Of a DNA stretch of 64,000 nt, positions 13,573 to 64,000 are shown in pieces (position 1 is the stretch's first letter; every line of letters starts with the position of its first letter). Position numbers and translations under genes: made by a program. The notes below the pieces were generated by a model. The model had not been told where the DNA came from. It searched no databases and saw only the letters and a program-made list of their open reading frames with translations. The stretch spans positions 11,370,421 through 11,434,420 of the forward strand of contig NC_081397.1 of assembly GCF_030684315.1 (NCBI RefSeq), read 5' to 3'. The DNA comes from Stegostoma tigrinum (Eukaryota).

Positions 13573-13624
13573 CTACAACACACACAAGGTACTACTCTCA
13601 ATGCTGATCCTGCTGCGGCGCTGC

Positions 13625-14471: not shown

Positions 14472-14487
14472 GGCTCTGAAAAGAGCC
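14472..14487 (-). terminator. Histone 3' stem-loop (H4)
   Basis: Reverse complement GGCTCTTTTCAGAGCC-ACCCA. Confidence 0.97.
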
Positions 14488-14517
14488 TTTGGGTTCGCTG
14501 GAAAAGGGACGATTTGC

Positions 14518-14838
<321 letters not shown>

Positions 14839-17650: not shown

Positions 17651-17899
17651 AAATTATGCTCAAACTTTTATTCTATATGAAAACAGTAAGGGAGGTGACA
17701 TGAGCAGAACAAAACATTGGCACATAGTTCACAATTATGCGCTTAATCTGCAGCACGCTTCATAGAATCACCACAGAATCCCTACAATGTGGAAACAGAT
17801 ACTTCAGCCCAACTAAAATTCCACACCGACCCACTGAAGAGCATCCCCTCCCAGACCCATCGCACCGCCATTTCCCTGCAACCCTGCATTTCCCTTTGT

Positions 17900-18350: not shown

Positions 18351-18789
18351 TGAACAGTGGAAACACAGACTAGAGGCATGTTATAACCCTGAAAAGGACA
18401 GGTATTTGAGTCCCCAGGTTAAATTTCTCACCTGAAATATTTAAAATAGCGCCCTTTGTTCTTCCTTTTCACAGGTAGTGTGTTGTGAGCTGGATATTGA
18501 TCTGTGTATGCATGCCTGTTTCTTCGGATAGCCCCATGTATGAAAGTACAGTTGTTGCTCAGTTTCTGATTCTCACTCAGTTGATTTCGAATTATTTCAG
18601 GAAAAAAAAGTACCATGAGAATTCCCAGAAAAGGAGCAGATCTGGAGAACAGGGAATAAAGCCTCTGGTTCTGTTCATTTTGCTCGTTTTCTTCTTTTAA
18701 AAACAAACACACGTCCCAATGATTATGAACTTGATGTTATGTTGATTAGTTCCATACGGCCAGACTTTCTGTATATTGACTTCCTCCAG

Positions 18790-27335: not shown

Positions 27336-28328
27336 GGAGTGGGGTTCCACAGGGCTCTGTCCTTGGGCCTCTACTGTTTGTAATTTTTATTAATGACTTG
27401 GACGAGGGAATTGAAGGATGGGTCAGCAAGTTTGCAGACGACACAAAGGTCGGAGGTGTCGTTGACAGTGTAGAGGGCTGTTGTAGGCTGCAGCGGGACA
27501 TTGACAGGATGCAGAGATGGGCTGAGAGGTGGCAGATGGAGTTCAACCTGGATAAATGCGAGGTGATGCATTTTGGAAGGTCGAATTTGAAAGCTGAGTA
27601 CAGGATTAAGGATAGGATTCTTGGCAGCGTGGAGGAACAGAGGGATCTTGGTGTGCAGATACATAGATCCCTTAAAATGGCCACCCAAGTGGACAGGGTT
27701 GTTAAGAAAGCATATGGTGTTTTGGCTTTCATTAACAGGGGGATTGAGTTTAAGAGTCGTGAGATCTTGTTGCAGCTCTATAAAACTTTGGTTAGACCGC
27801 ACTTGGAATACTGCGTCCAGTTCTGGGCGCCCTATTATAGGAAAGATGTGGATGCTTTGGAGAGGGTTCAGAGGAGGTTTACCAGGATGCTGCCTGGACT
27901 GGAGGGCTTATCTTATGAAGAGAGGTTGACTGAGCTCGGTCTCTTTTCATTGGAGAAAAGGAGGAGGAGAGGGGACCTAATTGAGGTATACAAGATAATG
28001 AGAGGCATAGATAGAGTCGATAGCCAGAGACTATTTCCCAGGGCAGAAATGGCTAGCACGAGGGGTCATAGTTTTAAGCTGGTTGGTGGAAAGTATAGAG
28101 GGGATGTCAGAGGCAGGTTCTTTACGCAGAGAGTTGTGAGAGCATGGAATGCGTTGCCAGCAGCAGTTGTGGAAGCAAGGTCATTGGGGTCATTTAAGAG
28201 ACTGCTGGACATGCATATGGTCACAGAAATTTGAGGGTGCATCCATGAGGATCAATGGTCGGCACAACATTGTGGGCTGAAGGGCCTGTTCTGTGCTGTA
28301 CTGTTCTATGTTCTATGTTCTATGTTCT
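27336..28328 (+). mobile_element. Young 5'-truncated CR1 LINE with intact C-terminal frame
   Basis: Uninterrupted 278-aa ORF 27398-28234, (TTCTATG)n tail, TSD AACTCT at 27330-27335 and 28329-28334. Confidence 0.96.
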
Positions 28329-34194: not shown

Positions 34195-37147
34195 GAGAAG
34201 GAGTGGATTAGGCAAAATGGGAGGATATTTAATTGGGGAATAGGAAACTATGACGTGATTAGACATGAGTTAGGAAGCATGGACTGGGAGCAATTGTTCC
34301 ATGGTAAGGGAACTATAGACATGTGGAGACTGTTTGAGGAACAGTTGTTGCGAGTGATGAGTAAATATGTCCCTCTGAGACAGGCAAGAAGGGGTAGGAT
34401 AAAGGAACCTTAGATGATGAGAGCGGTGGAGCTTCTTGTGAAAAGGAAGAAGGTAGCTTACATAAGGTGGAGGAAGCTAGGGTCAAGTTCAGCTAGAGAG
34501 GATTACATGCAGGCAAGGAAGGAGCTCAAAAATGGTCTGAGGAGAGCCAGGAGGGGGCACGAGAAAGGCTTGGCAGAAGGAATCAGGGAAAACACAAAGG
34601 CATTTTGCACTTATGTGAGGAATAAGAGAATGGTCAAAGAAAGAGTAGGGCCAATCAGGGATAGCATAGGGAACTTGTGTGTGGAGTCTGAGGAGGTAGG
34701 GGAAGCCCTAAATGAGTTTTTTGCTTCTGTCTTTATGAAAGAAATGAACTTTGTAGTGAATGAAACCTTTGAAGAGCAGGTGTGCATGCTGGAATGGATA
34801 GAGATAGACGAAGCTGATGTGCTGAAAATTTTGTCAAACATTAAGATTGACAAGTCACCAGGCCCAGACCAGATTTGTCCTCGGCTGCTTTGGGAAGCGA
34901 GAAATGCAATTGCTTCGCCACTTGCGAAGATCTTTGCATCCTCGCTCTCCACTGGAGTCGTACCTGAGTACTGGAGAGAGGCAAATGTAATTCCTCTCTT
35001 CAAGAAAGGAAATCGGGAAACCCCCGGCAATTACAGACCAGTAAGTCTCACGTCCGTCGTCTGCAAGGTGTTAGAAAGGATTCTGAGGGATAGGATTTAT
35101 GACCATCTGGAAGAGCATAGCTTGATCAAATACAGTCAACACGGCTTTGTGAGGGGTAGGTCATGCCTCACAAACCTTATTGAGTTTTTTGAGGATGTGA
35201 CTAGAAAAGTTGATGAGGGTCGAGCTGTGGATGTGGTGTATATGGACTGCAGTAAGGCATTTGATAAGGTTCCCCATGGTAGGCTCATTCAGAAGGTCAG
35301 GTGGAATGGGATACAGCGGAACTTAGCTGCATGGATACAGAATTGGCTGGCCAACAGAAGACAGCGAGTGGCAGTAGAAGGAAAATATTCTGCCTGGAAG
35401 TCAGTGGTGAGTGGGGTTCCACAGGGCTCTGTCCTTGGGCCTCTACTGTTTGTAATTTTTATTAATGACTTGGATGAGGGGATTGAAGGATGGGTCAGCA
35501 AGTTTGCAGATGACACAAAGGTTGGAGGTGTCGTTGACAGTACAGAGGGCTGCTGTAGGCTGTAACGGGACATTGACAGGATGCAGAGATGGGCTGAGAG
35601 GTGGCAGATGGAGTTCAACCTGGATAAATGCGAGGTGATGCATTTTGGAAGGTCGAATTTGAAAGCTGAGTACAGGATTAAGGATAGGATTCTTGGCAGT
35701 TTGGAGGAACAGAGGGATCTTGGTGTGCAGATACATAGATCCCTTAAAATGGCCACCCAAGTGGACAGGGTTGTTAAGAAAGCATATGGTGTTTTGGCTT
35801 TCATTAACAGGGGGATTGAATTTAAGAGTCGTGAGATCTTGTTGCAGCTCTATAAAACTTTGGTTAGACCGCACTTGGAATACTGCGTCCAGTTCTGGTC
35901 GCCCTATTATAGGAAAGATGTGGATGCTTTGGAGAGGGTTCAGAGGAGGTTTACCAGGATGCTGCCTGGACTGGAGGGCTAATCTTATGAAGAGAGGTTG
36001 ACTGAGCTCGGACTCTTTTCATTGGAGAAAGGAGGAGGAGAGGGGACCTAATTGAGGTATACAAGATAATGAGAGGCATAGATAGAGTTGATAGAACATA
36101 GAACATAGAACAGTACAGCACAGAACAGGCCCTTCAGCCCACAATGTTGTGCCGACCATTGATCCTCATGTATGCACCCTCAAATTTCTGTGACCATATG
36201 CATGTCCAGCAGTCTCTTAAATGACCCCAATGACCTTGCTTCCACAACTGCTGCTGGCAACGCATTCCATGCTCTCACAACTCTCTGTGTAAAGAACCCG
36301 CCTCTGACATCCCCTCTATACTTTCCACCAACCAGCTTAAAACTATGACCCCTCGTGCTAGCCATTTCTGCCCTGGGAAATAGTCTCTGGCTATCGACTC
36401 TATCTATGCCTCTCATTATCTTGTATACCTCAATTAGGTCCCCTCTCCTCCTCCTTTTCTCCAATGAAAAGAGACCGAGCTCAGTCAACCTCTCTTCATA
36501 AGATAAGCCCTCCAGTCCAGGCAGCATCCTGGTAAACCTCCTCTGAACCCTCTCCAAAGCATCCACATCTTTCCTATAATAGGGCGCCCAGAACTGGACG
36601 CAGTATTCCAAGTGCGGACTAACCAAAGTTTTATAGAGCTGCAACAAGATCTCACGACTCTTAAACTCAATCCCCCTGTTAATGAAAGCCAAAACACCAT
36701 ATGCTTTCTTAACAACCCTGTCCACTTGGGTGGCCATTTTAAGGGATCTATGTATCTGCACACCAAGATCCCTCTGTTCCTCCACGCTGCCAAGAATCCT
36801 ATCCTTAATCCTGTACTCAGCTTTCAAATTCAACCTTCCAAAATGCATCACCTCGCATTTATCCAGGTTGAACTCCATCTGCCACCTCTCAGCCCATCTC
36901 TGCATCCTGTCAATGTCCCGCTGCAGCCTACAACAGCCCTCTACACTGTCAACGACACCTCCGACCTTTGTGTCGTCTGCAAACTTGCTGACCCATCCTT
37001 CAATTCCCTCGTCCAAGTTGATAGCCAGAGACTATTTCCCAGGGCAGAAATGGCTAGCACGAGGGGTCATAGTTTTAAGCTGGTTGGAGGAAAGTATAGA
37101 GGGGATGTCAGAGGCGGGTTCTTTACACAGAGAGTTGTGAGAGCATG
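34195..37147 (+). mobile_element. Young CR1 ORF2 segment (host), with premature stops and no 3' tail
   Basis: ORFs 34123-34413, 34414-35565 and 35581-35982 (RT domain). Resumes at 37025-37147 after the nested insertion. Confidence 0.95.
36095..37015 (-). mobile_element. Young CR1 copy inserted antisense into a CR1 of the same family
   Basis: Intact 278-aa ORF 36180-37016, tail at ~36091-36112, TSD AGTTGATAG at 36086-36094 and 37016-37024. Confidence 0.96.
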
Positions 37148-48410: not shown

Positions 48411-49931
48411 GGCACAAATGCTGTCTTTACCAGCAATGCCCCACATCCTTCGCCTGAACGAGGGGTCATCGTGATTAAAAAACAGCAATAAGCCAGTCAC
48501 CATCCTTACTGGCTCGAATGTGAACAATTCATCAGCACAGTCCTGCTGTTCCATTCAAAGGTACCTGGTACCTATTGACCAGACCCTTTGGCCCTCGCGC
48601 TGGTGTTGTCCCTGATGTTGTTCACCAGTTTGCAATCGGACCTGCGCTGCTCCTTTCTTGGTGGCCAGCAATTGTCAGATCCAGATGGCATCGATGTTAA
48701 AATCTTAACGTCTTCTACCAAGCCTGTACTTAGATCAACCCAAACCCTTTTGTGGTGCAGCGAGAGTGTCTGTATGTCGGGACTAAAAAGCCAACATTTT
48801 TTTAATTCATGGGATGAGGGCATTGCTGGCCAGGCCAGCATTTGTTGCCCATCCTTAGCTGTCCAGGGGGCTGTTAAAAGTCAACCACTTTGCTGTGGGT
48901 CTGGAGTCACATGAAGGCCAGGCCAGGTAAGGATAGCAGTTTCCTTCCCTGAACCACGTGAGTGAACCAGATGGGGTTTTCCAACAATTGATTCACAGTT
49001 ACCATCAGACTCTCAGATTCAAGATTTTGATGAATTTAAATTCCACCATCTGTGTTGCAGGATTTGAACCCGGGTCCCCAGAACATCACTGGAACATCAG
49101 GATTAACAGTTCCGCGATAATCCCATGAGGCCATCGCTTCCCCATTCAAAGGTCAAGCCTGCCGCTCTGGAGGTGTGTGATCCCCCATCCTGACAATGTG
49201 GCGTTTCCAAAATACCTGCAGCGGAGAGAAACGCCCTACGTTCCTGTTCCCACAATGGGTTTTGGAATCTCAGAAAGCCGAGTTGAAGTGTCCAGCAGGG
49301 GTTTTGGTTCATTGGGTGATCTAGTCTTTTCCGTATAGACTCTGTTTCAGCCATGCCTTTTCTATCCAGTTTGTTCAGTGGCTTGCAGCTCAGTGTGTGT
49401 TCCTTCTGTGGGGCCAGAAGTTGTTCCTTCCAACCCTACACCCCAGGTCTCTTTCACCCTGGAATGTAACCATTGAAATTGGCTGGTTTCTCTTTTTATA
49501 TATCTCCCAACTGACAGATCCTTCTGGCAATTCCTGTTCAAAGTTGGTCAGAATGGGGGAGATTCCTGTTCCATGCGCAGAAGGTGGCAGATGATGTCTT
49601 CCTCCCCTTAAACATGGCCCAACTGAAAAGCTCAATCCTCAGACATGTACATGAGAGGGAAGCAGAGGCAGGTATTAAATTTCCAAAGACCACCAGCTGC
49701 TGAAATAGTTTTGAATTTACAAAACTAACAGCCTGCAATGTCCAGAACAGACCAACAGATGCAACAACATGAAATTAGCTTCAAAATGAGTGGAGCAGAA
49801 CAATGTGTGAAAGATGGTTTCCATCGCAAAGTTCACAAGTTTGCGATCTGTACACAGGAGTTACATTGTACCTCTTCATGAGACAGTCTATAAAAATCGA
49901 ATGACCCGCCTCTCATCTGTCTTCTTCTTTC

Positions 49932-50051
49932 TTACTTGAGTGGAATATTCTCGTAAACATTTCCATCCGCTCCGTCTTCTTCCTCTGAGAGCTCGCTGAG
50001 CTTCAGTGTGGCGTATGTGATACAGGAATCATTGGGGTCAGGCTTGGCGTC
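49932..50051 (-). CDS. Ig receptor terminal coding exon (ITIM ITYATL plus YENI)
   Basis: ttccaattgcag| phase 0, DAKPDPNDSCITYATLKLSELSEEEDGADGNVYENIPLK-TAA. Confidence 0.85.
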   Translation of the reverse strand, partial: DAKPDPNDSCITYATLKLSELSEEEDGADGNVYENIPLK

Positions 50052-50384
50052 CTGCAATTGGAACGATATTGGAATGGAATTGGAATTGAGTGGGAGCAGG
50101 AAGGTGAAGAGGTGGGAGAGGTCGTTTGTAGGTAAAGGTAGGAGTGGATATCAGTGGGAAACAGGAATCACCAACAGGAAGTTCAGTGCCACAAGTTAGG
50201 AATCTGGGTAGTGCAGTGGTAATTTCCCTACCTCTGAGCCAGGAGGCTGGGGTTCAAGTCCCACCTGTGCCTGAGGTGTGCCATACAGATTATAAAAGTG
50301 GGAAGGTGATGTCAGAGCTGTACAGGACTTTGGTGCGGCTGCAGCTGGAGCACTGTGTGCAGTTCCAGTCTCCGCACTATAGTA

Positions 50385-51372
50385 GTGGTGAGTGGGTTTC
50401 CACAGGGCTCTGTCCTTGGGCCTCTACTGTTTGTAATTTTTATTAATGACTTGGATGAGGAGATTGAAGGATGGGTCAGCAAGTTTGCAGACGACACAAA
50501 GGTTGGAGGTGTCGTTGACAGTATAGAGGGCTGTTGTATGCTGCAGCGGGACATTGACAGGATGCAGAGATGGGCTGAGAGGTGGCAGATGGAGTTCAAC
50601 CTGGATAAATGCGAGGTGATGCATTTTGGAAGGTCAAATTTGAAAGCTGAGTACAGGATTAAGGATAGGATTCTTGGCAGTGTGGAGGAACAGAGGGATC
50701 TTGGTGTGCAGATACATAGATCCCTTAAAATGGCCACCCAAGTGGACAGGGTTGTTAAGAAAGCATATGGTGTTTTGGCTTTCATTAACAGGGGGATTGA
50801 GTTTAAGAGTCGTGAGATCTAGTTGCAGCTCTATAAAACTTTGGTTAGACTGCACTTGGAATACTGCATCCAGTTCTGGTCGCCCTATTATAGGAAAGAT
50901 GTGGATGCTTTGGAGAGGGTTCAGAGGAGGTTTACCAGAATGCTGCCTGGACTGGAGGGCTTATCTTATGAAAAGAGGTTGACTGAGCTCGGACTCTTTT
51001 CATTGGAGAAAAGGAGGAGGAGAGGGGACCTAATTGAGGTATACAAGATAATGAGAGGCATAGATAGAGTTGATAGCCAGAGACTATTTCCCAGTGCAGA
51101 AATGGCTAACACGAGGGGTCATAGTTTTAAGCTGGTTGGAGGAAAGTATAGAGGGGATGTCAGAGGCGGGTTCTTTACACAGAGAGTTGTGAGAGCATGG
51201 AATGCGTTGCCAGCAGCAGTTGTGGAAGCAAGGTCATTGGGGTCATTTAAGAGACTACTGGACATGCATATGGTCACAGAAATTTGAGGGTGCAGACATG
51301 AGGATCAATGGTCGGCACAACATTGTGGGCTGAAGGGCCTGTTCTGTGCTGTACTGTTCTATGTTCTATGTT
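50385..51372 (+). mobile_element. Young CR1 inserted in an older CR1 (intronic)
   Basis: ORFs 50355-50822 and 50823-51287 split by one stop, (TTCTATG)n tail, TSD CTATAGTA at 50377-50384 and 51373-51380. Confidence 0.95.
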
Positions 51373-52099
51373 CTATAGTAAGGATGTAATTGCACTGGAC
51401 AGGGTGCAGAGGGATATTCACGAAGATATTGCCTGGGTCAGAACATTTCACCAGTGAAGTGAGGCTGGACAAGCTCAGGTCGATGCTTGGAGCAGAAAAG
51501 GCTGAAAGGGCTTTTGATTTGTTTCCATTCACTCATGGGACATTGGCATTGCTGGCTGGGCCCAGCATTTGTTGCCCTGTCCCTTGCTGCCCTCTTGAGA
51601 AGGTGGTATTGAGCCGCCTTCTTGAGCTGCTACAGCCCCATGTCCTGTAGGTCGACTCACAATGCGCTTCAGGAGGGAACTCCAGGATTTTCACCCAGTG
51701 ACACTGAAAGAACAGCCAATGTATTTCCAAGTTGGGATGGTGAGCGGCTTGGAGGGGAACACACAAGGGGTGGTGTAGCCATGCATCTGCTGCCCGTGTC
51801 CTTCTGGATGGATGTGGTTGTGGGTTTGGAAGGTGCTGTCTGGGGATCTTTGGGAAATTTCTGTCGTGTATCTTGTAGATGGTACATACTGTAGCTACCA
51901 ATTGGGTGTGAATGACAATGAACTGGCAACTATTTAATGTCACGGTCAGTGATGTTTTAATTCTGTACAGGAGTAACTGGAACACCAACACCAGTAATGC
52001 CACAAGTTTGAAACTCACTTATCCCCAGGCACTGGAAGTGGAATGTGAAACAATGAGTGACCTACTCCATTGTTAAAGCATTGCTGGATATTTCCCACT

Positions 52100-52890
52100 G
52101 TGTTTAAAGCAGGCACAAAGCTATGGGGGAGGGGAGCTGTGAAGGAGGCTACAGAGATGCTTCAGTGTGATTTGGACAATTCAGGAAGTGGCAGCTAATG
52201 TAGATCAGCATGAGGTTATCCAACTGAGAGCAAAAACAGGAAGGTGGTGATTATCCAAACGGTGATGGATTGGGAGTGGGGGAGGTGCAATGAGACCTAC
52301 GTGTCCCCCATACACCAATCGCTGAAAGTGAGTATCGCAGGGGCAGCGGGTGGGGAAGGAGGCAAATGAGATGCCGGCCTTCAAGCGAGAGGATTCGAGC
52401 CCAGGAGCCGGGATGTCTTGCTGCAATTGTGCAGGCTGAGACCAAACCCTGGAGTATTGTGTGTGCAGTTTGGGATCAACTTATCTGAGAAAGGATGTCC
52501 TGGCTACGGAGGGAGTGCAGTGAAGGTTTCACAGACTGATTCCTGGGATGGCAGGATGGACACATGAAGAGAGACTGGTTTGGCTAGGATTATATTCACT
52601 GCAGTTCAGGAGAATAAGGGAAGAATCTCATAGAAAACTGTAAAATTCTAACAGGACTAAATACGGTAAACACAGGAAGGATGTTCCTAGTGACTGGGAG
52701 GAAGTCAAGAACCAGAGGACACAATATAAAGGAGATGGGTAAGGACTGAGATGAGGCGAAATGTCTTCACCAAGAGAGTGGGATCCTTGTGGGATTCTCT
52801 GCGACAGAACACAGTCAGGACCAGAAAATTGAATGGGGAGAGCAGCCTGGAAGGGCTGAATGGCCGACTCCTGCTCCTACTTTCTAAGGT
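52100..52890 (+). mobile_element. Old CR1 fragment
   Basis: ctggagtattgtgtg..cagtttggg, aggactgagatgagg..ttcacc motifs and gggctgaatggccgactcctgctcct tail. Confidence 0.75.
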
Positions 52891-53015
52891 GTTTCCTGTG
52901 ATCAGTCTGATATGAACCAATAGTTAATATTTTACTGCGCGGATGTAAGGTATAAATCGACCTGCACTTCCTGTGGCAATAGCTGTGGTCTATTTAGGCT
53001 TAAAATGTAACATAC

Positions 53016-53050
53016 CTTCTTCCCATTCGAGGAGAAACCAACACTGCTGC
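53016..53050 (-). CDS. Ig receptor cytoplasmic exon (35 nt)
   Basis: gttttattttcag| and |gtatgt, phase 1 to 0, GSSVGFSSNGKK. Confidence 0.75.
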
Positions 53051-54509
53051 CTGAAAATAAAACAGACCAAGTTGAGAAGGAACTCTTTGGAGACATTGAC
53101 GATTCAATTTGGACGAATTGAAGGCTGATCAACATTAAAGATGTAACTGAATATTTCAAAAGCATAAGCTGTGTTTTTATATTGGTGCAACGCTTAATAA
53201 ATTGTCCTCCTCAATCAGCCCAGAAACTTCAGAAGATCGCATTTAGAAACCTCGCTCTGGCTAAAGCCTACAATTTGCATTCAGGTCAATCACACAGAGG
53301 GTCAGTTTTTTAGGATGCAGGTCATTGCAACATCTTCAGCAGGCCGCCTTAATCTTATCAGCCTTTGCATCACTCACCCTGTTGTTGTACATGAAAACGA
53401 CAAGAGTGAACCATACAGATAACGTCCATTTGGGTTTTAGCTGTTGCATGCTGATAGTTTCAGATAGCTCAGTTGGCTAGATGGCTGGTTTTTGTAATAC
53501 ATGGCATGCCAGCCCTTGCCAACAGCATGGGTACAATTCCCACACCAGCTGAGGCTACCCTGAAGGATGCTCCTTTTGAACCTCTCCCCTCTCCTGAGGC
53601 GTGGTAACTCTCAGACAAGTTAAAACACCACCCAGTTCCCCTTCACTCTCTCTCTCTCCTATGAAAGAGCAGGCTGGTGGCCATGTAGAACATGACCATT
53701 TACTACTCATTCCCTTCAGACAAAGGCTAGAATGTGTTTGGATTCCATTGTACACAAGGCCAACTTCAGTTCAAATGTCCCTTGTGGGTGTTGATCGGTA
53801 TCCGTGTGATAATTGCAAGTTCATCTTTCTGAGCAACAATATGACATGCGGTGCTTTTATTTTCTCTGTCATCTCAAATCAGCAGGTGGTAGCATTTTGC
53901 ATATCCGCCTTGCGTATTATATGAGGAAAATGGAACTTACTTTCTCTCTATCCACAGATGCTGCCAGACCTGCTGAGCTCCTCCAGAAATATCTGAATTT
54001 ATTTCTGATGTCCAGCATCTACAGTTCTTAGTTTTAAGAGAAAATGATCTACGTCTGCCTCAGTTAAGTGTAAAATGCATGTCCCACTGCTTGCGTCACG
54101 CACAGAATGTTTCTACATGTACAAAACAGTAATTGGGAAGCGACCGCCATCATATCACAGTCACCAACACACACAGCGATATATTTTTATTTCATTCATT
54201 CACAAGGTGTCACTGGCCAGGCCAGCATTTATTGCCCAACCCGAACTGTCTCCATTGCTGTGGGTCTGGAGTCACATGTCGGCCTGACCAGGTAAGGATT
54301 GCAGCTTCCTTCCCTAAAAAGCATTGGTAAATTTATTGGGCTTTTCCCCAACAATTTCATGGTCATTAAACTCTGAATTCCAGATATTTATTGAATTCAA
54401 ATTCTGTGGGAGGATTCGAACCCAGGTCCCCAGGACATTAGCTGGGGTCTTTGGATTAACAGTGAAGTGATAATATAACTAGACCATACCCCTTCTGATT
54501 GGAATAACC

Positions 54510-54697
54510 AGATGTGGTGCTGGATGAGCACAGCAGGCCAGGCAGGGTCAGAGGAGCAGGAAAGCGGACATTTCAGGTCTGGACTCTTCTTCATTTTCTG
54601 AAACATCGGCTTTACTGCTCCTCTGATGCTGCCTGGCCTGCTGTGTTCATCCAGCTCCACACCTTGTTACCTCAGACTCCAGCATTGGCAGTCCCTG
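54510..54697. mobile_element. Head-to-head inverted dimer of the hammerhead-core element
   Basis: ctggatgagcacagcaggccaggcag mirrored by ctgcctggcctgctgtgttcatccag. Confidence 0.75.
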
Positions 54698-55046
54698 TTA
54701 ACCCTTTCTCATTGCTCTGTGTGTCTGTTCTGAGTCACTGACAACATATAAATCATCTCCAAATCCTTGACCCTATCTGCAGGGGAACAAAGGGTCACAG
54801 CAGATCAGATCGGGGCTTGTTTCTGATTGGCTGGTTTACTGTCCATTCATTCACAAATCTGGATGTTTCTTTTGGTAGACCCTCTGTTCCCTCACACTCC
54901 TGTCACTGCAAGCACTGTGGTATTTCTCTATTTGGAACTGGCCACACACAGGCATTTCCACAGTAACTGGGATCATGATATTGTTGGAGCTGCAACGATC
55001 CTCTGTCTCTCTCTTAAACATAGCATTAAACAAACAAAATATTTAC

Positions 55047-55106
55047 CAGACTCTGTTCTCTTTTTGGTGGTGACCACTGAATAAACTATATCCGCAGCGG
55101 TGTTTT
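55047..55106 (-). CDS. Ig receptor cytoplasmic exon (ITIM IVYSVV)
   Basis: tttatttctttgtag| and |gtaaat, phase 1 to 1, ENTAADIVYSVVTTKKRTES. Confidence 0.85.
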
Positions 55107-56548
55107 CTACAAAGAAATAAAGTGCACATGAAAAACACACATCAATCAGAGAGCAGCGCTTTTATGGGCTAAATGACACATGCAACATCAATGCACAGAT
55201 TCATGGATAGATAATAAATTTAAGAGCTGGATGGACAAATTTAATCGACTGATGGATGGATAGACAGATGGATGTTTTAAGATAGAGATAGATAGTTCTT
55301 GATTAATAAGGGGAATCAAGGGTGATGGGAGAAGGAAGGGAAATGAGATTGACAAACATATCAGCTTTGGTCAAGTGGCACAGCTGACTTGATGGACAGA
55401 ATGGCCTAATTCTTCTCCTATATGTAAGGTCCTGTAGCCTTATTTAGATAAGAAGATGCATAGATAAATAAATATGCATACAGATAATATCCTTGGTGAT
55501 CATTAAGTTCACTACAACCACTATAAATACTGCTGTACAGGAAGCTTGCTTCCCTTCATATCACTTGCATGGAGCACTTGTGTCTCTGAGGAGCCAAGCC
55601 TTTGTACACATCACTCATTGTAACCAACATCAGTTGGATTTCTCAATACCAGAGTACTGCGCCCTCAGTTTCCGACATTACTTCCGATAAAATAAGCATG
55701 GTGTGTCAGGCAAAACACCCTGAAGGAGGTCCAGTCACAAGGTATTAACAGCAACGGCCGTCTGTAAAAGACACTGGTTAAAGATAGGGGTTTATAGCCC
55801 AGCAGTAGACCCATCAGCCCATCAGGTCTGTGCTGGCCAAAAGCAACCACCTCCCTATTCTCTAATCACATTTCCCCAGCACCTGCCTCCATAGCCTTGG
55901 CATCACAAGTGCACATCTCAATCTTTCTTCGATGTGATGAGATATTCTGCCTCTCCCACCCTGACAGGCAGTGAGTTCCAAATTCCGCATCACTGACTGG
56001 ATGAAAACATTTTCATTCACATCCCCCTCTAAACCTCCTGCTCCTTACCTTCAATCCATGTCCCCAACCCCCCGGTCGTTGAGTCCTTCAAGAAGGGGGA
56101 AGGGTTTCTTCCTGTCTCCCGTATGTCTGCCCCTTATCATTTTATACACCTCAAAGAAGGAGGAGTTGGCATCTTTGAGGGTGAAAGGGATTGAAGTGTC
56201 CGGGGGAGAAAGCTGGGAACCGGGGATTGAGTTTGATGGTCAGCTGTGACACTACCCAATGGGCCGGCCAATGGGAAGGCTGAATGGCCTCCTCATTTCT
56301 CTCAGAAACAGGGACTGAATTAGATGGTTAGCTATAATCATAATGTCTGGCAGAACAGGATAGGAGGGCTGAATGGCCTAGTACTGTTTCCTGGCTGCTG
56401 TCCTCCCCTTCAGCCTCCACAGCTCCAAGGAAAACCACCCCATTCTAGCCCAGCTGACAGCTCGGACGTTTGACCAGAATTCCTACCATGTTATGGTGCA
56501 CCGTCACTGTGTGGGGCTCTATAACCACACCGATTCAATGGCACTCAC

Positions 56549-56622
56549 CAGCATTGTGTGCTGCTCCGATTACTGCATACTCCAGGTTGCTGGCTGCTGC
56601 CGCTTCACCAGAAGCTTGGGAT
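56549..56622 (-). CDS. Ig receptor cytoplasmic exon (ITIM-like LEYAVI)
   Basis: cccctttctactggaaatag| and |gtgagt, phase 2 to 1, RSQASGEAAAASNLEYAVIGAAHNA. Confidence 0.8.
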
Positions 56623-57165
56623 CTATTTCCAGTAGAAAGGGGAAGGGAAGGAAGTTGTCATTTCAAACACAACGCTTTCAACACCACGCTCAGATTCAAT
56701 AAAACAGCAAAGCTAGCATGGAAATTACAAAGCCCAGTTAAACCCTGTTATTGCTTGGTCCCACGTCCCTGGTTTCCATCCAAACATGGAGCTTTCTCAC
56801 CCTCAAGGAGCTTCCCAATTCCCCATCGCTTTTCACTTATGTCGTTTAGTGAAGGGAATCTGCCATCCTTACCTGGTCTGGCCGTTTTGTGACTCCAGAA
56901 GCTGGTTAACAAAACTGCCCTCTGGGGCAATCAAGGATGGGCAATAAATATTGGCCCTGCCAGTGACACCCACACCCCTGTGAATGAATAAAAGCCACCT
57001 GGGACTTTCCAGGAGTATTGTTTCCTGGTTTGTCAGGCTCATATTAAAAGGATAAGGCAATACCCAAGCTCCCTCTCTCAGTTCTTCTGCTCGTTGTCGC
57101 TCCCTGATTAAGGGGAATCAGGATAAACAATGGCAAATATAAAATTTGCAGTTTCATCCCCTTAC

Positions 57166-57196
57166 CTCTTGGGCTGTGACACAGGTGAGGAATTGC
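57166..57196 (-). CDS. Ig receptor juxtamembrane exon (31 nt)
   Basis: tctctctacctgcag| and |gtaagg, phase 1 to 2, GNSSPVSQPK(R). Confidence 0.8.
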
Positions 57197-57354
57197 CTGC
57201 AGGTAGAGAGATAACATTCTTAGCGTATTGGACAGTAGCTTTGTGCTGTTACAGACAGGAGCTGCAAAGCCCTTTCTCAGTCATAAGCAGAGAGCAAACA
57301 CATCAATAGATGAGAATCATCAAACCCATCTTAATGCACATTAACCAGTTGTGA

Positions 57355-57770
57355 CAGGGATCGGGTGAGGGTTTGGGTTAGTGTCTGAGTGAGGGCCAAG
57401 GCCAGAGTTCGGGTCAGCATGAGGTTAAGGATTGTTTTATGGTGAGGGTTAGCATTCAGTTTAAGGTTAGTGTTAGGATTTGGATTAGGATTAGGGTCAT
57501 GGTTAGGTTTTTGGGTATGGTTTGGGTCAGGGTTAGGGTTAAGGTTGTTTCAGCATTATGGTTCAGTTCAGGATTAGCATTGGGTTAAGGCGAGGGTTAC
57601 GGTGAGGGTCAGCATTCAGTCTAGGGCTAGGCTAAAGGTTTGGGTTGGTGTATTAGTTTTAGTTAGCATTTGGCTGAGAGCCAAAATTAGAATGAGTATT
57701 AGAGCTCAGTTTCGGACTAAGATTTAGTTCAGAGGTAGGTTTGAGTTTAAATTAGGGTTAGGATTAGTGG
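57355..57770 (+). repeat. Degenerate (TTAGGG)n-like hexamer tract
   Basis: ggttagggtt, ttagga, tcaggg and tgaggg variants with 6-nt period. Confidence 0.8.
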
Positions 57771-58081
57771 ACCAAGGACTTGAGGGGGCTGAATGGCCTC
57801 CTCCTGTTCCTGATTCACATGATCTTATGCCTCTCCTCTTCTCTGAGGTAACACAGAGTGGCAGTATTGGTCACATTTACCCGATCCAGGAGGCTAACTT
57901 TGTGAGTGCTCTCCCTTCTACTGTCGGGAACACGGTCTACACCAGTTCCTGACCCAATACCTCCTTCCCCGGGTCCCCCACCCCCACCCCCACCCTGTCC
58001 AGCTGCAAAGGTTACACTGGGGCGGGGACGGCAATGCCATGCCCCGGGGAACAAACCCGATCCCCGTGGGAAGTTACAGAC

Positions 58082-58183
58082 CTGTGTGCCCCCTCCGGTG
58101 GATGAACCACGCCGACGCGATCAGGCCGGCGAACAGCAGAACTGGGACGAGCGAGGCCGCGATCTCCGTGGAATAACTCCGAG
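58082..58183 (-). CDS. Ig receptor transmembrane exon
   Basis: ttggatttcag| and |gtctgt, phase 1 to 1. ARSYSTE-IAASLVPVLLFAGLIASAWFI-HRRGHT: 21 mostly hydrophobic residues plus a basic stop-transfer. Confidence 0.85.
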
Positions 58184-59007
58184 CTGAAATCCAACAACAA
58201 CATCCGGCTCACGTTAACAAACTCAGCGGGAAGTGTTACCGCATCAGCCCTGTGTGAGGCACACGGTCAGCATCAGAGTGACCAACCCCTGCAGGTACGT
58301 AACTCCCTGCCACCCACGGGGGATGGAAAACACGGAAGAATTGAGCCCATTGAGCTCCCTGCACCGAACCCACTTTCTCGCACAAGCCCCTGAGAGCCCA
58401 GAAGGTTTTGACACATTGAGTTCTCATCTAGGCACTTGTCAAAGGTTATCAGGTTTCCAGCCTCAACACCCCTCCCAGGCAGTGCAGTCCGGAACACCCA
58501 CCATCCTCTGGGCGAAACAATCCTCAAACACCCTCTATTCCTCCTGCATTCTACTTTCAAATGATGCTCCCCTTATTGCTCACCCTTCCACCCAGGGGAG
58601 CCGCTGCTCTCTGACCCCCCTCCCCCATAGCCGTCCCTGTGCCACACAGACTGACACACCTCTATCAGTTCCCCCTCAGCATTCCCTGCTCCAAAGAAAA
58701 CAGCCTGAGCTTACTGAGCCTCTCTTCATCGCTGAAATGCACCAGCCCAGGGCAACGTCCTGGTGAATCTCCTCTGCACGCCCTTCTCCATAAGACTTAC
58801 ACTTCCAGATTTTTATTGCGCTCAAATTCTACCATTGAGTATGGAGGGATTTGAACTGGGATCCCGGCAAAATGACCCAGGCAGCTGGATTAATAACCTC
58901 ACGTCACCTTCCTAACTGAGATGGTTAATTTTGACTGGCACGGACTGGATGGAGCGAATGGCCTTTCCCTGTGCTCTGTCTGTGTCTGATCTGACTGTCA
59001 CTGTTAC

Positions 59008-59310
59008 CTCGCAGCGTGAATTCGATATAGTCGCTGGTCACGTTAAAAATGGTGCCGTCGGTTCCTGTGTTGATCGCTGCACAGTGATACCTCCCGACAC
59101 TGTCTCTCCGGAATGAATGAATAACCAGCTCACCACCATCGGCAGTCACATGGGAGCTCGCACTGCCGTTCCTTAGCGGCACGTTGTCTCGGTACCAAAT
59201 GAACTGGGGCTCAGTGCCTTCCCTCACCAGGCACCGGAGAACAAGGCGGTCCCCGGGCTGTATCTCAGTCCCGTTGGTGCGGGATATCAGCACAGCATCC
59301 GTGACAGGAA
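59008..59310 (-). CDS. Ig C2-type domain exon of an Fc-receptor-like/PECAM-like receptor
   Basis: gttttctcctcag| and |gtaaca, 303 nt, phase 1-1. VPVTDAVL..GDRLVLRC..EGT..FIWYRDN..L.I..DSVGRYHC. Confidence 0.92.
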
Positions 59311-60067
59311 CTGAGGAGAAAACACGCCGAGTTCAAAACCATGGAGTTCGCCCATCGATTGAGGCTATCAGTGGGGACCAGTTTAATGCAAATAATTTAA
59401 AAGGGATTTAAGCAGTACGATGGATTCAAAATCTAATGGAGAGCTTTAATACTCCCCAATGATCAACATTTTGGAGATTATCATTGAGGGAAAAAAATCT
59501 ACCTGTCGCACCACCCCACCAGCACACCCCCCAAAATGTTCAAAGGAGTTACCATCGGCGTATCCCCACACACTATCCTTGGGAGATGCTAAAATTGAGA
59601 GACTTCATTGAGTCATACAGCGTGGAGTGGGCCCTTCGGCCCATTGAGCCTACACACACAATAACTGCCCCCTAAAGGCATACTAAATCCAACTTCCTCC
59701 CCTGGTCCCATATTCTTAAATGTTATGATATGAGAAGTGCTTCTCCAAATATATTTTAAAGACGTTTCGGTTTATGCTCGCCACTATATTCCCAGTCAGT
59801 GCATTCCTGATTCACCCAGAGCTGAGTGAAAAAGCTTTATTTTTTTGTCAAATCCTCTCTGAATCCCCTGCCTGTTACACTAAATCTGTGCCCTCTCATT
59901 TTAATTTTAGCATCTCCCAAGGATGTGCAATCTCATGATTGACCCATCAACCAGGGGGAACAGATGCTTTCCATTCACCCTGTCCATCCCTCTCACAATT
60001 TTATACACCTCATTCATGACCCTCCTCTGGCTTCCCTGCTGAAAAAAATCAATCCAGGCCTATCTGG

Positions 60068-60264
60068 AGATAGTGGGAACTGCCAATGCTGGAGAATCGA
60101 AGATAACAAGGTGTAGAGCTGGATGAACACAGCAGGCCAAGCAGCATCAGAGGAGCAGGAAGGCTGACATTTCGGGTCTGGGCCCTTCTTCAGAAATGTC
60201 AGCTTTCCTGCTGCTCTGCTGCTGCTTGGCCTGCTGTGTTCATCCAGCTCTACACCTTGCTATC
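60068..60264. mobile_element. Head-to-head inverted dimer of the hammerhead-core element, inside a minus-strand CR1
   Basis: Arms ~60102-60173 and 60193-60264 are near-perfect reverse complements. Confidence 0.85.
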
Positions 60265-60384
60265 CCAAGCCCATCTAGTCTCTCTTTCTAGCTCAATTGC
60301 TCCAACCCAGGAAACAACCTGGTGAACCTCTTCTGTATCCCCTCTAGTGCGATCACATCTTTCCTGTAGTGAGGTGACCAGAAA

Positions 60385-62185
60385 TGCACACAGCTTTCTA
60401 TCGGTATGCCAGGAACAAAAGAATGACTAGAATAAGATTAGGGCCAGTCAAGGACAGTCATGGGAAGTTGTGTGTGGAGTCTGTGCAGACAGCAGAGATG
60501 CAAAATGAACATTTTTCTTCAGTGTTCACACAGGAAAAAGACAATGTTGTTGAGGAACATACTGAGATATGGGCTTTGAGACTAGATGGGATTGAGATTC
60601 ACAAGGTGTTGGTGTTAGCAATTCTGGAAGGTGTGAAGATAGATAAGTCCCCTGGGTCGGATGAGATGTATCCGAGGATCCGCTGGGAAGCTCAGGAGGA
60701 GATTGTAGAGCTTTTGACTTTGATCTTTATGTCATCATTATCTTCAGGAACAGTGCAGGAAGACTGGAGGATAGCAAATGTTTTCCTCTTGTTCAAGGAG
60801 GGGAGGAGGGACAATCCTGGTAACTACAGACCAGTGAGCCTTACTTCGGTTGTGGGTAAAGTGTTGGCAAGTATTATAAGAGATAAGATTTATAATCATC
60901 AAGAAAGGAATAATTTGTTTAGGGATAGTCAGCACGGTTTTGTGAAGGGTAGATCATGACTCATAAACCTTACTGAGTTCTATGAGAAGGTGACCAAACA
61001 GGTGGATGAAGGTAAAGTGGTTGATGTGGTGTATATGGATTTGATTACATTAGTTTGATAAGGTTCCCCACGGTAGGCTATTGCATAAAATACAGAGTTA
61101 TGGGATTGAAGGTGATTTAGAGGTTTGGATCAGAAGTTGTTAGTTGGAAGAAGACAGAGGGTGGTGTTCGATGGGAAATGTTCACCCTGGAGTTCAGTTA
61201 CTAGTGGTGTACCACAAGGATCTGTTTGGGGCCACTGCTGTTTGTCATTTTTATTAATGACCTGGATGAGGGCATAGAAGGATGGGTTAGTAAATTTGCG
61301 GATGACACTAAAGTTGGTGGAGTTGTGGATAGTGACGAAGGATGTTGCAGGTTACAGAGGGACATAGATAAGCTGCAGAGATGGGCTGAGAGGTGGCAAA
61401 TGGAGTTTAATGCAAACAAGTGAGAGGTGATTCACTTTGGAAGGAGTAACAGGAATACAAAGCACTGGGCTAATGGTAAGATTCTTGGTAGTGTGGATAA
61501 GCAGAGAGATCTCAGTGTCCGTGTACATAGATCCCGGAAAGTTACCACCCAAGTTGATAGGGTTGTTAAGAAGGCATACGGTGTGTTAGGTTTTGTTGGT
61601 AGAGGGCTTGAGTTTCGGAGCCATGAGGTCATGTTGCAGCTGTACAAAACTGTGGTGGGCTACAATTGGAGTATTGCATACAGTTCTGGTTGCCACATTA
61701 TAGGAAGGATATGGAAGCATTAGAAAGGGTGCATAGGAGATTTACCAGGATGTTGCCTGATATGGAGGGAGGGTCTTATGAGGAAAGGCTGAGGGACTTG
61801 AGGCTGTTTTCGTTAGAGAGAAGAAGGTTGAGACATGACCTAATAGAGACATACAAGATGATCAGAGGATTAGATAGGGTGGACAGTGAGAGCCTTTTTC
61901 CTCGGATGGAGATGGCTAGCACGAGGAGACATAGCTTTAAATTGAGGGATGATAGATATAGGACAGATGTCAGAGGTAGGTTCTTTACTCAGAGAGTAGT
62001 AAGGGCATGGAATGCCCTGCCTGCAACAGTAGTAGACTCACCAAGTTTAAGGGCATTTAAATGGTCAATGGATAAACATGTGGATAATAATGCAATAGTG
62101 TAGGTTAGATGGGCTTCAGTTTTATTTCACAGGTCAGTGCAACATTGAGGGCCAAAGGGCCTGGAGTGTTCTATGTCTCTACATT
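60385..62185 (+). mobile_element. CR1 LINE ORF2 remnant with 3' end
   Basis: ORFs 60384-60959, 61226-61423 and 61666-62103 with CR1 RT motifs. Confidence 0.93.
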
Positions 62186-63793
62186 TCTACTACTCCGGAT
62201 GCTCAGAATCCTGTAACGAACAATTGACCACCTGACTCCCCAGAGCCTGTCCGACATTGACAATACACAAGTCAGTAGTGTGATGGAATACTCCCCGCTT
62301 GCCTGGATGGGTGTAGATCTAACAACACTTTAGAAGCTGAACACCATCCATAGAAAAAGCTACTCCCACTTGATTGCCACATCCCCAAACATCCAATCCC
62401 GACATCACTGACATAGTTGTGACAGTGTGTACCATCTACAAGACACATTGAGGACATCCACCAAAGATTGTGAGGCAACACCTTGTAAACCCACAGCCAC
62501 TTCAATCCTGATGGACAAGGGCAGCAGATACATGGGAACACCAGGACAAATTCCCCTCTGAGCCACTCACCATCCTGACTTGGAAATATATCTACTGTTC
62601 CTTCAGCGTTGCTGGGCCATAATTCTGGAATTCCCTCCCTAAGAGCAATGTGGGTCACCAACAGCACATGGATTGCAGCGATTCAACAAGGCAGCTCACC
62701 ATCAACTTCTCAAAGTGGGGCAACGAGGGACGGGGACTGCATTGCCCATGTCCCATGCATGAATAAATAACTCCCAATGGAATAGGCCTGCCTATTATCA
62801 TTCACCAAACATTGTGTATATAATTTAAGTCCAGTTCATTTTTAGACTCGCGAAGTGAGAAACAAGCTCAGTAATGGTGAAACTGGATGACTCATGAAAT
62901 TGCGCTAAACAGAGACAAAAGGGTGTTGTTGGGAGAAGGATACCAGCCATCCTTACCCAGCATGGAACTCCACATAACTTCAGACCAAAACTGAAGGGAA
63001 CTATTTTGAACCTCCTTCTGAAGGGGCCAAGCAAGTCAGTCCCTTCTCAGAAATACAGTCTTTTGACAAAGTTCTCCTCTAACTGTGATTTAAAAAGCAA
63101 ACCCTCATAAACACCAAGCCCATCCCCACCCTGATAATCATTGACACTTGACCAATCACCTCCCTTCACACTCTAAATGCCCGGTGTTTTGCCCAAAATC
63201 AACACTTTGGTCATTAATGTAATGCTGTTTGTTATTTTGGTCAGAAGACCAGGAGAGATTGGGACAGGAGTTGGTTCTCCAGCAAAATATCTAATCAAAT
63301 ATTCAGGGGATGCGCAATTTTTGGAAATGACAAGGAGGGAGGCCGTGTGGATGATATAGCTCTGTACGAGATTGAATAGATATGACAGCAACAAGAATCA
63401 TCTAGGATCAGGTGGTGTAGAAGCTATCATGGGCGAGACGAAAACTATATTGGCTGGAGTTTGGAAGAATGATGGGAGGCATTGAATCTCAGGATGTTCT
63501 TGATGATCAATGGGATAATCTAGAGACAGGGAGTCACAGTCTGAAGGAGATGGGGTAGGACTGAGGTGGGGAGAAATGACTTCACCCCGAGAGTGGGGAA
63601 CCTGTGGAGTTCTCTGCCACGGAAAGCAGTCAGAGACAGAAAATTGAATGTTATTCAGAAATGAGCTGAAGACAGTTCTTAGGGGCTAAAGGGACATGCA
63701 AGTTACGGGCATTGAGTTGGATGATCAGTCACAATCCCAATGAATGGGTACAGCAGCCTGTCTGAATGGCCTACTCGTGTTCCTATTTTCTTT

Positions 63794-64000
63794 GATTCTA
63801 TGTTAACAAGGTGTAGTGTTGGATGATCCCCCTGGTCATATTGAATGGCTAAGCAGATTCGAAGCGCTGAATGCTCCTATGTTCTAGGTTTCAAGGTTTT
63901 GATGGAATGATTCTATGTTAACAGGGTGTAGTGTTGGATGATCCCCCTGGTCATATTGAATGGCTAAGCAGATTCGAAGCGCTGAATGCTCCTATGTTCT
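63794..64000 (+). repeat. 115-bp tandem repeat running off the window end
   Basis: gattctatgttaaca.ggtgtagtgttggatgatccccctgg at 63794 and 63909. Confidence 0.85.

Follow-up and report, generated by a model that had tools for sequence, protein, structure and literature searches.

The zebra shark (Stegostoma tigrinum) gene described here, judged from its sequence, probably encodes a type I leukocyte receptor that belongs, broadly defined, to the FcR/FCRL lineage, at the grade of the Xenopus XFL "TM2" receptors and on the shark-and-ray branch of that family. It comprises 14 exons with an open 2139-nt frame (712 amino acids); seven exons lie in the window, i.e., the whole 64-kb stretch of DNA analyzed, and seven lie beyond it. 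The product contains a split leader, six Ig domains, an uncharged transmembrane (TM) segment, three ITIM-type motifs, and a terminal YENI.

Gene Structure and Genomic Setting

Each of the seven window exons is directly preceded by AG, all six coding donors carry GT, and the phases chain through a frame that is open as far as TAA (Table 1). The coordinates, splice sites, and continuous phases that an earlier note had claimed for these minus-strand exons are thus confirmed, as are its Ig domain, TM segment, and four tail motifs; the sixth Ig domain passes the Pfam cut-offs (Ig_3, E = 1.2e-11). That note had also guessed that the 5′ exons lie outside the window, and seven were indeed found there, the closest (Ig5) 1.3 kb past the end. 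Exons 1–7 rest on homology and splice sites, and the read-run mapping described below covered window exons 8–14. NCBI models for paralogs and for other sharks (P0002, P0004, P0006, P0014) arrive independently at the same exon chain. Extra cysteines were seen in Ig3 and Ig4 of the window copy, at positions where its relatives have Arg, Tyr, or His.

Table 1. Coordinates of the receptor exons and the neighboring histone features (window positions unless contig C56 is named).
Feature	Position	Strand	Description	Basis
Leader S1 exon	C56 11451180-11451150	-	31 coding bp	predicted: homology, splice sites
Leader S2 exon	C56 11449519-11449490	-	30 bp	predicted: homology, splice sites
Ig1 exon	C56 11446448-11446203	-		predicted: homology, splice sites
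Ig2 exon	C56 11445165-11444899	-		predicted: homology, splice sites
Ig3 exon	C56 11439611-11439330	-		predicted: homology, splice sites
Ig4 exon	C56 11436952-11436680	-		predicted: homology, splice sites
Ig5 exon	C56 11436013-11435729	-		predicted: homology, splice sites
Intron 7, part	59311-64000	-	continues past window end	
Exon 8	59008-59310	-	sixth, membrane-proximal Ig domain, 303 bp, phase 1-1	exon check, Pfam, trees
Exon 9	58082-58183	-	TM helix, core without charged residue	joints on both sides in 4/4 runs
Exon 10	57166-57196	-	tail exon 1, 31 bp	
Exon 11	56549-56622	-	tail exon 2, 74 bp, ITIM-type LEYAVI	
Exon 12	55047-55106	-	tail exon 3, 60 bp, ITIM-type IVYSVV	
Exon 13	53016-53050	-	tail exon 4, 35 bp	upstream joint in 3/4 runs
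Exon 14, coding part	49932-50051	-	ITIM-type ITYATL, C-terminal NVYENI, stop	
H2B frame	9612-10061	+	presumed H2B	open frame
H2A frame	11819-12355	+	presumed H2A	open frame
H3	13159-13572	-	presumed H3	open frame
H4	14518-14838	-	presumed H4	open frame
Histone 3′ stem-loops (RF00032)	10098-10143, 12379-12423, 14447-14492			Rfam
Histone cluster and spacer	8769-38526		colinear with divergent-subfamily unit, C56 ~3.0 Mb	blastn pieces, ~69-94%

This organization is that of the XFL family, for which a two-exon leader, one phase-1 exon per Ig domain, and an uncharged TM2 tail have been described (PMC2413239). In the shark gene, the leader is likewise split over two exons, every Ig domain occupies one phase-1 exon, and the TM segment and tyrosine-motif tail are encoded on separate exons, as in the TM2 class. 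The second leader exon is described as consistently 21 bp in FCR/FCRL genes (PMC7940838), and only a fraction of XFL genes follow this rule (PMC2413239). With an S2 of 30 bp, the window gene departs from the strict mammalian FCRL1-6/FCGR pattern and is not filed as a member of that group.

Searches with six markers for the tetrapod FcR-region neighbors gave no match on C56, the contig that carries the gene. BolA, PRP3, and PRCC mapped to contig C60, and NDUFS2, an FcR-gamma-like exon, and a calponin-repeat gene to C59, where 44 kb separate NDUFS2 from the FcR-gamma-like TM exon. An FcR-gamma chain has reportedly been found in catshark. Eighteen samples of C56, each 10 kb long and drawn from its middle and its ends, contained repeats but no gene family, so the contig offered no neighbor for synteny comparison. 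ARHGEF11 was rejected as a synteny marker: the RGS-like matches on C53 and C42 both fitted p115RhoGEF best in the PDB, and the test therefore cannot separate paralogs, nor is C53 called a 19q13 homolog.

Domain Affinities

The assignment to the FCRL lineage draws on domain trees built from 86–90 columns, from which some repeated domains, two PECAM domains that were wrongly cut, and 25 redundant rows were omitted. Ig6 formed a clade with the membrane-proximal domains of FCRL-like proteins from paddlefish, caecilian, frogs, and turtle, both among 127 domains (support 100/95) and in a smaller tree of 48 chosen rows (100/99), and Ig3–4 grouped with D3-type domains of squirrel FCRL5, lion FCRL2, turtle, caecilian, frog, and paddlefish (94/94, 99/99). 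Ig1, Ig2, and Ig5 formed shark-only clades, the position of which was left open by the 127-domain tree. Class profiles made from non-shark domains identified Ig2 as D1, Ig3 and Ig4 as D3, and Ig6 as FcR membrane-proximal, with Ig1 and Ig5 ambiguous (Ig5 scored 51 bits for PECAM d6 vs. 47 for D5); five of the six domains scored best against FcR classes. The resulting FCRL-like order, from D3 to a membrane-proximal domain, TM segment, and tyrosine tail, is the same as in the paddlefish, caecilian, frog, and turtle proteins. On these sequence comparisons, FCRL descent of the shark receptor family is highly probable.

Structural databases were searched as well. In the PDB, a profile of seven shark sequences retrieved FCRL5 (E = 1.9e-99, summed over repeats), FCRL4, and Fc-gamma-RI as its top three molecules. 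An AlphaFold model of the paralog P0002, predicted from a seven-row alignment, reached a mean pLDDT of 61.6, with the last Ig domain mostly below 50, and Foldseek placed PirB/LILRB first for this model (TM-scores near 0.14), with Fc-gamma-RI in ninth place; neither the model nor the ranking is informative for a flexible chain of several domains.

Copy Array and Histone Clusters

C56, a single contig of 15.6 Mb, carries 24 near-identical copies of the receptor gene (97–100% identity in Ig6), the window gene among them. A histone H4 gene lies 35–45 kb downstream of 20 of these copies (same strand, within 50 kb), where random placement gave a mean of 4.4 and a maximum of 13 in 10,000 draws; as the copies are not independent, this linkage shows co-duplication, not function. 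The H4 matches used numbered 70, of which 38 were linked, and many have no adjoining receptor. The earlier note had overlooked this array and its joint duplication with a histone cluster inside the same window. We take the window frames between 9612 and 14838 to be H2B, H2A, H3, and H4. No tRNA was found in the 64-kb window, and Rfam detected only histone stem-loops over 144 kb. A screen of 82 open frames (75 from the C56 samples, out of 158 before simple repeats were dropped, and seven from window positions 17.7–31.9 kb) returned a single fragment of a reverse transcriptase, a weak DUF match, and nothing else.

All seven 3′ exons are kept, with intact splice sites and no stop, in 17 of the 24 copies. 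Five copies lack four tail exons, including the ITIM exons, through a 7.2-kb deletion, two have a broken acceptor, and six have no Ig3 match nearby; in the divergent receptor subfamily (Table 1), 17 of 22 matches contain stops. Most likely, a receptor gene came to stand beside a histone cluster that was amplified as segments of 150–400 kb, which would account for the copy number, and some copies may then have lost 5′ exons or ITIM exons. The dN/dS of the window copy was 0.16–1.18 against paralogs, on few changes, and 0.87 against the C53 tail; constraint on the receptor sequence appears weak.

Splicing was examined in public read runs. Thirteen runs were found, none recorded as RNA; their contigs are called transcript-like here. 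Five of the six junctions predicted in the earlier note were bridged, with letters that are those of paralogs and not of the window copy: 59008/58183, 58082/57196, 57166/56622, and 56549/55106 in all four runs, and 55047/53050 in three of four. The sixth, 53016/50051, was absent among the 15 joints listed (79 more exist); one run bridges 50053–55046 with 32 letters that, compared by eye, represent a paralog version of the 35-bp exon. A joint from the TM exon to the last exon, which would give a tail-less form, was present in three of four runs; alternative splicing may be its origin, but the five genomic copies with the 7.2-kb deletion would give an identical joint. At 11 variant sites of the last exon, the run contigs never agree with the window copy, which may therefore be silent, whereas they agree with the neighbor copy and with the deletion copies at 10. 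The contigs drop rare variants and may derive from other individuals, and thus do not amount to an absence of window-copy transcripts.

It is a serious possibility, if somewhat short of an even chance, that the window copy, like most of the array, is a passenger, i.e., a silent or decaying duplicate swept along as the histone clusters were amplified, with one or a few genes still working. The losses and stops listed above, the extra cysteines, the many H4 matches without a receptor, and the missing window-copy letters all point in this direction, but the window copy retains 14 exons, intact splice sites, and an open frame, most other copies keep their 3′ exons without a stop, and the run contigs are limited as stated. 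At the family level, such a fate is compatible with the preferred reading of an FCRL-lineage receptor.

Tail Motifs and Proposed Function

The 112-residue tail of this predicted receptor carries LEYAVI, IVYSVV, and ITYATL, which follow the ITIM-type consensus (I/V/L/S)xYxx(L/V/I), and ends in NVYENI. When the tail was shuffled 100,000 times, 0.022% of the shuffles produced at least three such matches (p = 0.00022). Among 20 shark and ray relatives (one, P0114, counted by likeness), 19 have at least two ITIM-type motifs and 18 a C-terminal YxN; LEYAVI is the least conserved motif across sharks, and IVYSVV and ITYATL are the two best conserved. No activating member with a charged TM segment (NxxR, TM1) was present among these 20 proteins. 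Binding of a ligand, or clustering together with an activating receptor such as the B-cell receptor, would lead a Src-family kinase to phosphorylate the tail; IVYSVV and ITYATL would then dock SHP-1/SHP-2 and damp the signal, while YENI is a possible docking site for Grb2 or an SH2 adaptor like it.

It is unlikely that the family serves as a receptor for shark antibody (IgM, IgW, or IgNAR), inhibitory like Fc-gamma-RIIB or FCRL5, with the tail-less forms as decoys. Human FCRL5 is reported to bind IgG through D1–D2 and D3, but mouse FCRL5 does not bind IgG (PMC12757038), and the ligands of most FCRL are given as other or unknown (PMC4016189). The order D1-D2-D3 was found in the C53 paralog and a ray protein only; the window copy (ambiguous, D1, D3, D3) misses a D2-type exon between Ig2 and Ig3 and with it the adjacent N-terminal D1–D2 pair, which in FCRL5 and Fc-gamma-RI is the module that binds Fc, on account of which an Ig ligand for this copy is possible and not favored. 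The D1-D2-D3 order in the C53 paralog and the ray protein, the title "Fc receptor for shark IgM" of 1988, cited in PMC6795676, the FcR-gamma-like TM exon on C59, and the joint from the TM to the last exon would fit an antibody receptor; opsonization, however, would need an activating member with a charged TM segment.

Relatives and Alternative Origins

Relatives occur in horn shark, catshark, white shark, sevengill, and rays, and domain types are shared with paddlefish, amphibian, turtle, and mammalian FCRL. NCBI automatically names them Fc receptor-like protein 2/3/5 or PECAM-like (Stegostoma, Rhincodon, Chiloscyllium). The NCBI proteins P0001, P0002, P0004, and P0014 are 76–98% identical in Ig6 and have the same tail motifs; in the nearest NCBI cluster, of which 15 members were listed and 3 were not, most of the listed proteins end ahead of the TM segment or shortly beyond it. 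No protein identical to that of the window gene was found among 63 compared, the best reaching ~82–85% over long stretches. The gene type is ordinary, automatic FCRL names being already in the databases. The earlier note's reading of a spliced FCRL-like receptor of a cartilaginous fish with an inhibitory-type tail is supported by structure, motifs, and domain trees. Its description of the gene as hidden does not hold, given NCBI models of near-identical paralogs (named FCRL3/5 or PECAM-like), nor does its suggestion of a lineage-specific family, given the relatives above; only the array is lineage-level.

An independent shark family, exon-shuffled from ancient Ig modules common to FCRL and PECAM1 rather than derived from one FCRL ancestor, is improbable: the length of S2, the lack of marker synteny, and the three domains left unplaced would suit it, but two domain types group with FCRL at 99–100 support, in FCRL-like order. 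PECAM1 itself, or a PECAM1/Allergin-1 offshoot, is scarcely credible and, on a sequence set without MILR1, already largely refuted, despite the PECAM-like names of P0003, P0004, P0006–P0008, and P0011–P0013, teleost PECAM1 matches (E = 1e-43 to 1e-36), and the slight preference of Ig5 for PECAM d6, as a separate PECAM1-like gene lies on contig C26 (its d1 joins PECAM d1, 98/90), constraint of shark Ig6 with PECAM d6 was rejected (p-AU = 0.016), and nearly all domains score best in FcR classes. The domain trees, the constraint test, and the C26 gene exclude PECAM1 as the ortholog.

Comparison with Known Receptors

Like the shark gene, the XFL TM2 receptors and FCRL3-named proteins of paddlefish, caecilian, and turtle combine a two-exon leader, repeated D3-type domains, the same membrane-proximal domain type, an uncharged TM segment, a multi-exon tyrosine tail, and lineage-level expansion. 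We infer that the shared membrane-proximal type is probably the D6 called Xenopus-specific (PMC2413239). Unlike XFL, the shark set of 20 lacks an NxxR (TM1) activating partner, no TAGLN2-group linkage was seen, and the shark copies, which hardly differ in Ig6, are linked to histone clusters.

Mammalian FCRL5/FCRL3 share D1- and D3-type domains and an ITIM-type tail with the shark gene and provide the best PDB sequence match; in contrast, they have a shorter S2 and a D1–D2 pair that the window copy lacks, and the membrane-proximal domain type of the shark gene is absent from the two mammalian proteins in the set. IgG is not known to exist in sharks. PECAM1 also has six Ig domains, many small tail exons, and ITIMs, and its d6 resembles Ig5, but it has its own shark locus and the other domains do not group with it. 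Human FCGR1A/B/C adjoin the HIST2 histone cluster at 1q21, where an FcR-family gene was duplicated with replication-dependent histone genes; these are three copies vs. more than 40 in the shark, and no relevant paper on this arrangement was among those listed by a literature search.

Significance

FCRL genes and the FcR-gamma chain were described as missing from cartilaginous fish and first present in bony fish in a 2014 paper (PMC4016189), and a 2026 review likewise reports FCRL as missing and asks how sharks perform antibody-dependent phagocytosis without it (PMC13337447). The literature search, which covered subscription journals thinly, found no paper on this receptor family or array, and no shark fcrl gene ids were among the matches listed from the supplement of PMC11372145, which gave no way to match its B-cell genes to this family. 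Against the reports of absence, an FCRL-like family appears to be present across sharks and rays at the domain level, and its origin would therefore move back to the origin of antibodies. The shark receptors are concrete candidates for binding shark IgM, IgW, or IgNAR. In the array, an immune receptor has multiplied along with histone clusters, which is unusual and bears on whether copy number should be taken as adaptive.

In a broader reading, the FcR/FCRL family and the FcR-gamma adaptor would go back to the common ancestor of jawed vertebrates, and an inhibitory receptor that binds antibody would be part of the shark branch. Antibody binding by some shark member is unlikely, and it is just as unlikely that the histone linkage is an ancestral block surviving as human FCGR1-HIST2; FCRL descent together with at least one of the two is somewhat less so, though still doubtful. 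On this reading, the ancestral block would have expanded in this shark into a small chromosome made up for the most part of units that join a receptor to histone genes, some receptors bearing ITIMs and others lacking a tail.

Gene structure and splicing

The seven minus-strand exons proposed in the earlier note were confirmed, with AG acceptors, GT donors and a single open frame running to TAA. The first of them encodes the membrane-proximal Ig domain, Ig6 (Pfam Ig_3, E 1.2e-11), and the tail of 112 aa carries LEYAVI, IVYSVV and ITYATL as well as NVYENI. With the general ITIM-type consensus used for counting, at least three matches arose in 0.022% of 100,000 tail shuffles. The 5' exons had been suspected to lie beyond the window, and five more Ig exons and a split leader (31 + 30 bp) were indeed located in the adjoining 130 kb. 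Including these seven upstream exons, which are predicted from homology and splice sites only, the gene comprises 14 exons (2139 nt, 712 aa) with no internal stops. Relatives at 97-98% are NCBI models of Stegostoma tigrinum, which makes zebra shark the most likely source of the window. In Ig3 and Ig4, this copy carries extra cysteines at positions occupied by Arg, Tyr or His in its relatives. Behind a second copy of the 30-bp leader mini-exon (see the table), the only Ig exons found are those of this gene.

Splice joints were assessed by comparing contigs of four public runs, which have no RNA annotation on record, over window 49700-59500. Four of the six predicted junctions were bridged in all four runs and a fifth in three, with GT-AG ends throughout and on the minus strand. 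The sixth is absent from the 15 joints listed, but one run crosses it, carrying the 35-bp exon in the form found in a paralog. Across the last exon and 3' region, the contigs match this copy at none of 11 variant sites, while 10 of these sites agree with a neighbouring copy or with the deletion copies. Because the contigs carry the letters of other copies and the runs are without an RNA record, the data support splicing at the level of the subfamily but do not show that this copy is expressed.

Locations of the gene and associated features (C-numbers are contigs of the same genome; C56 contains the window)
Feature	Location	Remarks
Receptor exons 8-14	window 49932-59310	minus strand
Second copy of leader mini-exon	C56, about 11458306-11458365	92% identical to the 30-bp exon; 8.8 kb upstream of second leader exon
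H2B, H2A, H3, H4, three histone stem-loops	window 9612-14838	replication-dependent histone cluster
GC-rich segment	window 17891-18363	89% conserved across both unit types; possible donor site
Reverse-transcriptase-like LINE fragments	window 27275-28234, 34414-37031, 50310-51287, 60378-62103	CR1-type by eye; several nearly identical; one within last intron of receptor gene
Degenerate TTAGGG tract	window 57461-57546	intron following TM exon
115-bp tandem repeat	window 63793-64000	window end
Inverted neighbouring copy	C56:11539970	Ig6, TM, tail
Divergent subfamily sites	C56, about 12.48-12.51 Mb, and 0.3-5.7 Mb	about 20 copies, mostly broken; 18 beside a histone cluster
Satellite/simple repeats	C56, 5.9-8.7 Mb and ends	predominant in samples; between the two arrays
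Ten-Ig paralog P0006	C53, about 16.33 and 17.06-17.09 Mb	decayed H4 fragments about 0.7 Mb off
Ig exons of CD22/Siglec-like look	C53, about 1.31 Mb	by eye
PECAM1-like gene	C26, about 10.99-11.02 Mb	five Ig exons found
FcR-gamma (FCER1G)-like TM exon	C59:9569577-9569660	best PDB match FcR-gamma; 44 kb from NDUFS2
Second such exon, CD3-zeta-like	C14	by eye

The receptor-plus-histone array

Contig C56 spans 15.6 Mb of a 3.2-Gb genome, and the window covers its positions 11370421-11434420. By counts that are lower bounds (128 candidates scored), it holds 24 copies of the Ig6 exon at 97-100% identity, on both strands between 9.1 and 15.2 Mb, and 22 matches at 40-45%, of which 17 contain stops; further matches comprise one on C798, one on C53 at 87% and two partial ones. 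The divergent subfamily at 40-45% in Ig6, that of protein P0177, includes members near 12.49 and 12.73 Mb that look complete and have a similar ITIM-type tail (sequence read for the 12.49 Mb member).

The repeat unit consists of a receptor and a histone cluster. Genome-wide, 59 of 62 identical H4 matches lie on C56. A same-strand H4 is found no more than 50 kb downstream of 20 of the 24 close copies, at 35-45 kb (4.4 of 24 by random placement), and of 18 of the 22 divergent matches, at 22-32 kb (1.8 of 20 for those at 0.2-5.8 Mb). The two unit types are colinear across window 8.8-38.5 kb. Because the copies share descent, the histone linkage indicates co-duplication only. Human FCGR1 presumably adjoins the HIST2 histone cluster, a possible parallel to the shark array. 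The GC-rich segment has a promoter-like look, with an NRF1-type motif; frames near it gave no Pfam matches, and it could represent a non-coding RNA or another gene's first exon.

All seven 3' exons and intact splice sites are kept in 17 of the 24 copies, and two have a broken acceptor. The four tail exons are missing in five copies, where joining TM to the last exon leads to a stop after a few residues; two more copies are without Ig6. This tail-less joint occurs in three of the four runs and in two NCBI models. Near the five deletion copies and the neighbouring copy, no match to Ig3 was detected. The inverted neighbouring copy gives the best letter match to the transcript-like contigs, and the stretch preceding it holds no upstream Ig exons that belong to this neighbour. 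Values of dN/dS against paralogs range from 0.16 to 1.18, with few changes, and duplication in the assembly may account for some of the near-identical pairs.

Six genes, chosen partly on general knowledge, served as markers of the tetrapod FcR region, and none was found on C56: BolA, PRP3 and PRCC lie on C60, and NDUFS2, an FcR-gamma-like exon and a calponin-repeat gene on C59. Eighteen 10-kb samples from the middle and ends of C56 consisted mostly of repeats and yielded no gene family; these regions are possibly centromeric.

Proposed signalling and possible ligands

Of 20 relatives from sharks and rays, 19 carry at least two ITIM-type motifs and 18 carry YxN, and by eye none has a charged TM core. 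By analogy with established ITIM biology, clustering would lead to phosphorylation of the tail tyrosines by Src kinases, SHP-1/2 would dock on the two conserved motifs, and an activating signal would be damped, probably in B cells. One study describes bamboo shark B cells as high in fcrl3, fcrl5 and fcgr1a-like, genes given by name only (PMC11372145). According to another, human FCRL5 binds IgG via D1-D3, but the mouse protein does not (PMC12757038). That some member of the shark family binds antibody seems rather unlikely.

Family placement

The earlier note called the gene hidden, but its paralogs already carry automatic NCBI names (FCRL or PECAM-like), and one paper uses names of this sort; the gene is therefore not a hidden one, nor does it represent a new receptor type. 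PMC4016189 (2014) reports that FCRL and FcR-gamma were not found in sharks, and FCRL is again stated to be missing from sharks in PMC13337447 (2026). In a literature search that covered few subscription journals, no published account of the receptor family or of the receptor-plus-histone array was found. The present analysis adds the array and domain-level sequence evidence for kinship with FCRL and not PECAM1. The original observation is confirmed and its interpretation partly supported.

A profile of seven shark proteins searched against PDB returned FCRL5, FCRL4 and Fc-gamma-RI at the top. Named relatives come from whale, bamboo, epaulette, cat, white, basking, horn, smooth-hound and sevengill sharks and two rays; among the 20 of 150 matches that were named, those outside sharks include FCRL-like proteins of frog, sturgeon, paddlefish, caecilian, turtle and mammal, and teleost PECAM1 scored below the FCRL-like matches. 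In a 127-domain tree, Ig6 groups with the membrane-proximal domains of proteins from paddlefish, caecilian, frog, toad and turtle (100/95), and Ig3-4 with FCRL D3-type domains (94/94); a mixture model on 48 domains gave 100/99 and 99/99, respectively. Ig1, Ig2 and Ig5 form shark-only clades whose position the tree does not settle. Class profiles, whose labels follow domain order in squirrel FCRL5 and our own tree, assign Ig2 to D1, place Ig1 between D2 and D1, and leave Ig5 tied between PECAM d6 and D5. By the same profiles, an adjacent D1-D2 pair is lacking in this copy; the order D1-D2-D3 is present in the C53 paralog and a ray protein. Placement of shark Ig6 with PECAM d6 was rejected (p-AU 0.016, an optimistic value, as the group was picked after the tree was seen). 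A separate gene on C26 has PECAM-type d1, d2, d5 and d6 domains.

The second leader exon measures 30 bp, versus the 21 bp described as consistent for FCR/FCRL in PMC7940838; according to PMC2413239, only a fraction of the Xenopus FcR-like receptors (XFL) follow the 21-bp rule. We classify the gene as a broad-sense member of the FcR/FCRL family and do not call it the ortholog of a mammalian FCRL. The XFL paper also describes inhibitory XFL with matching anatomy and a sixth domain subtype termed Xenopus-specific (PMC2413239). The Ig6 subtype is probably this sixth subtype, and if so, the subtype would be ancient.
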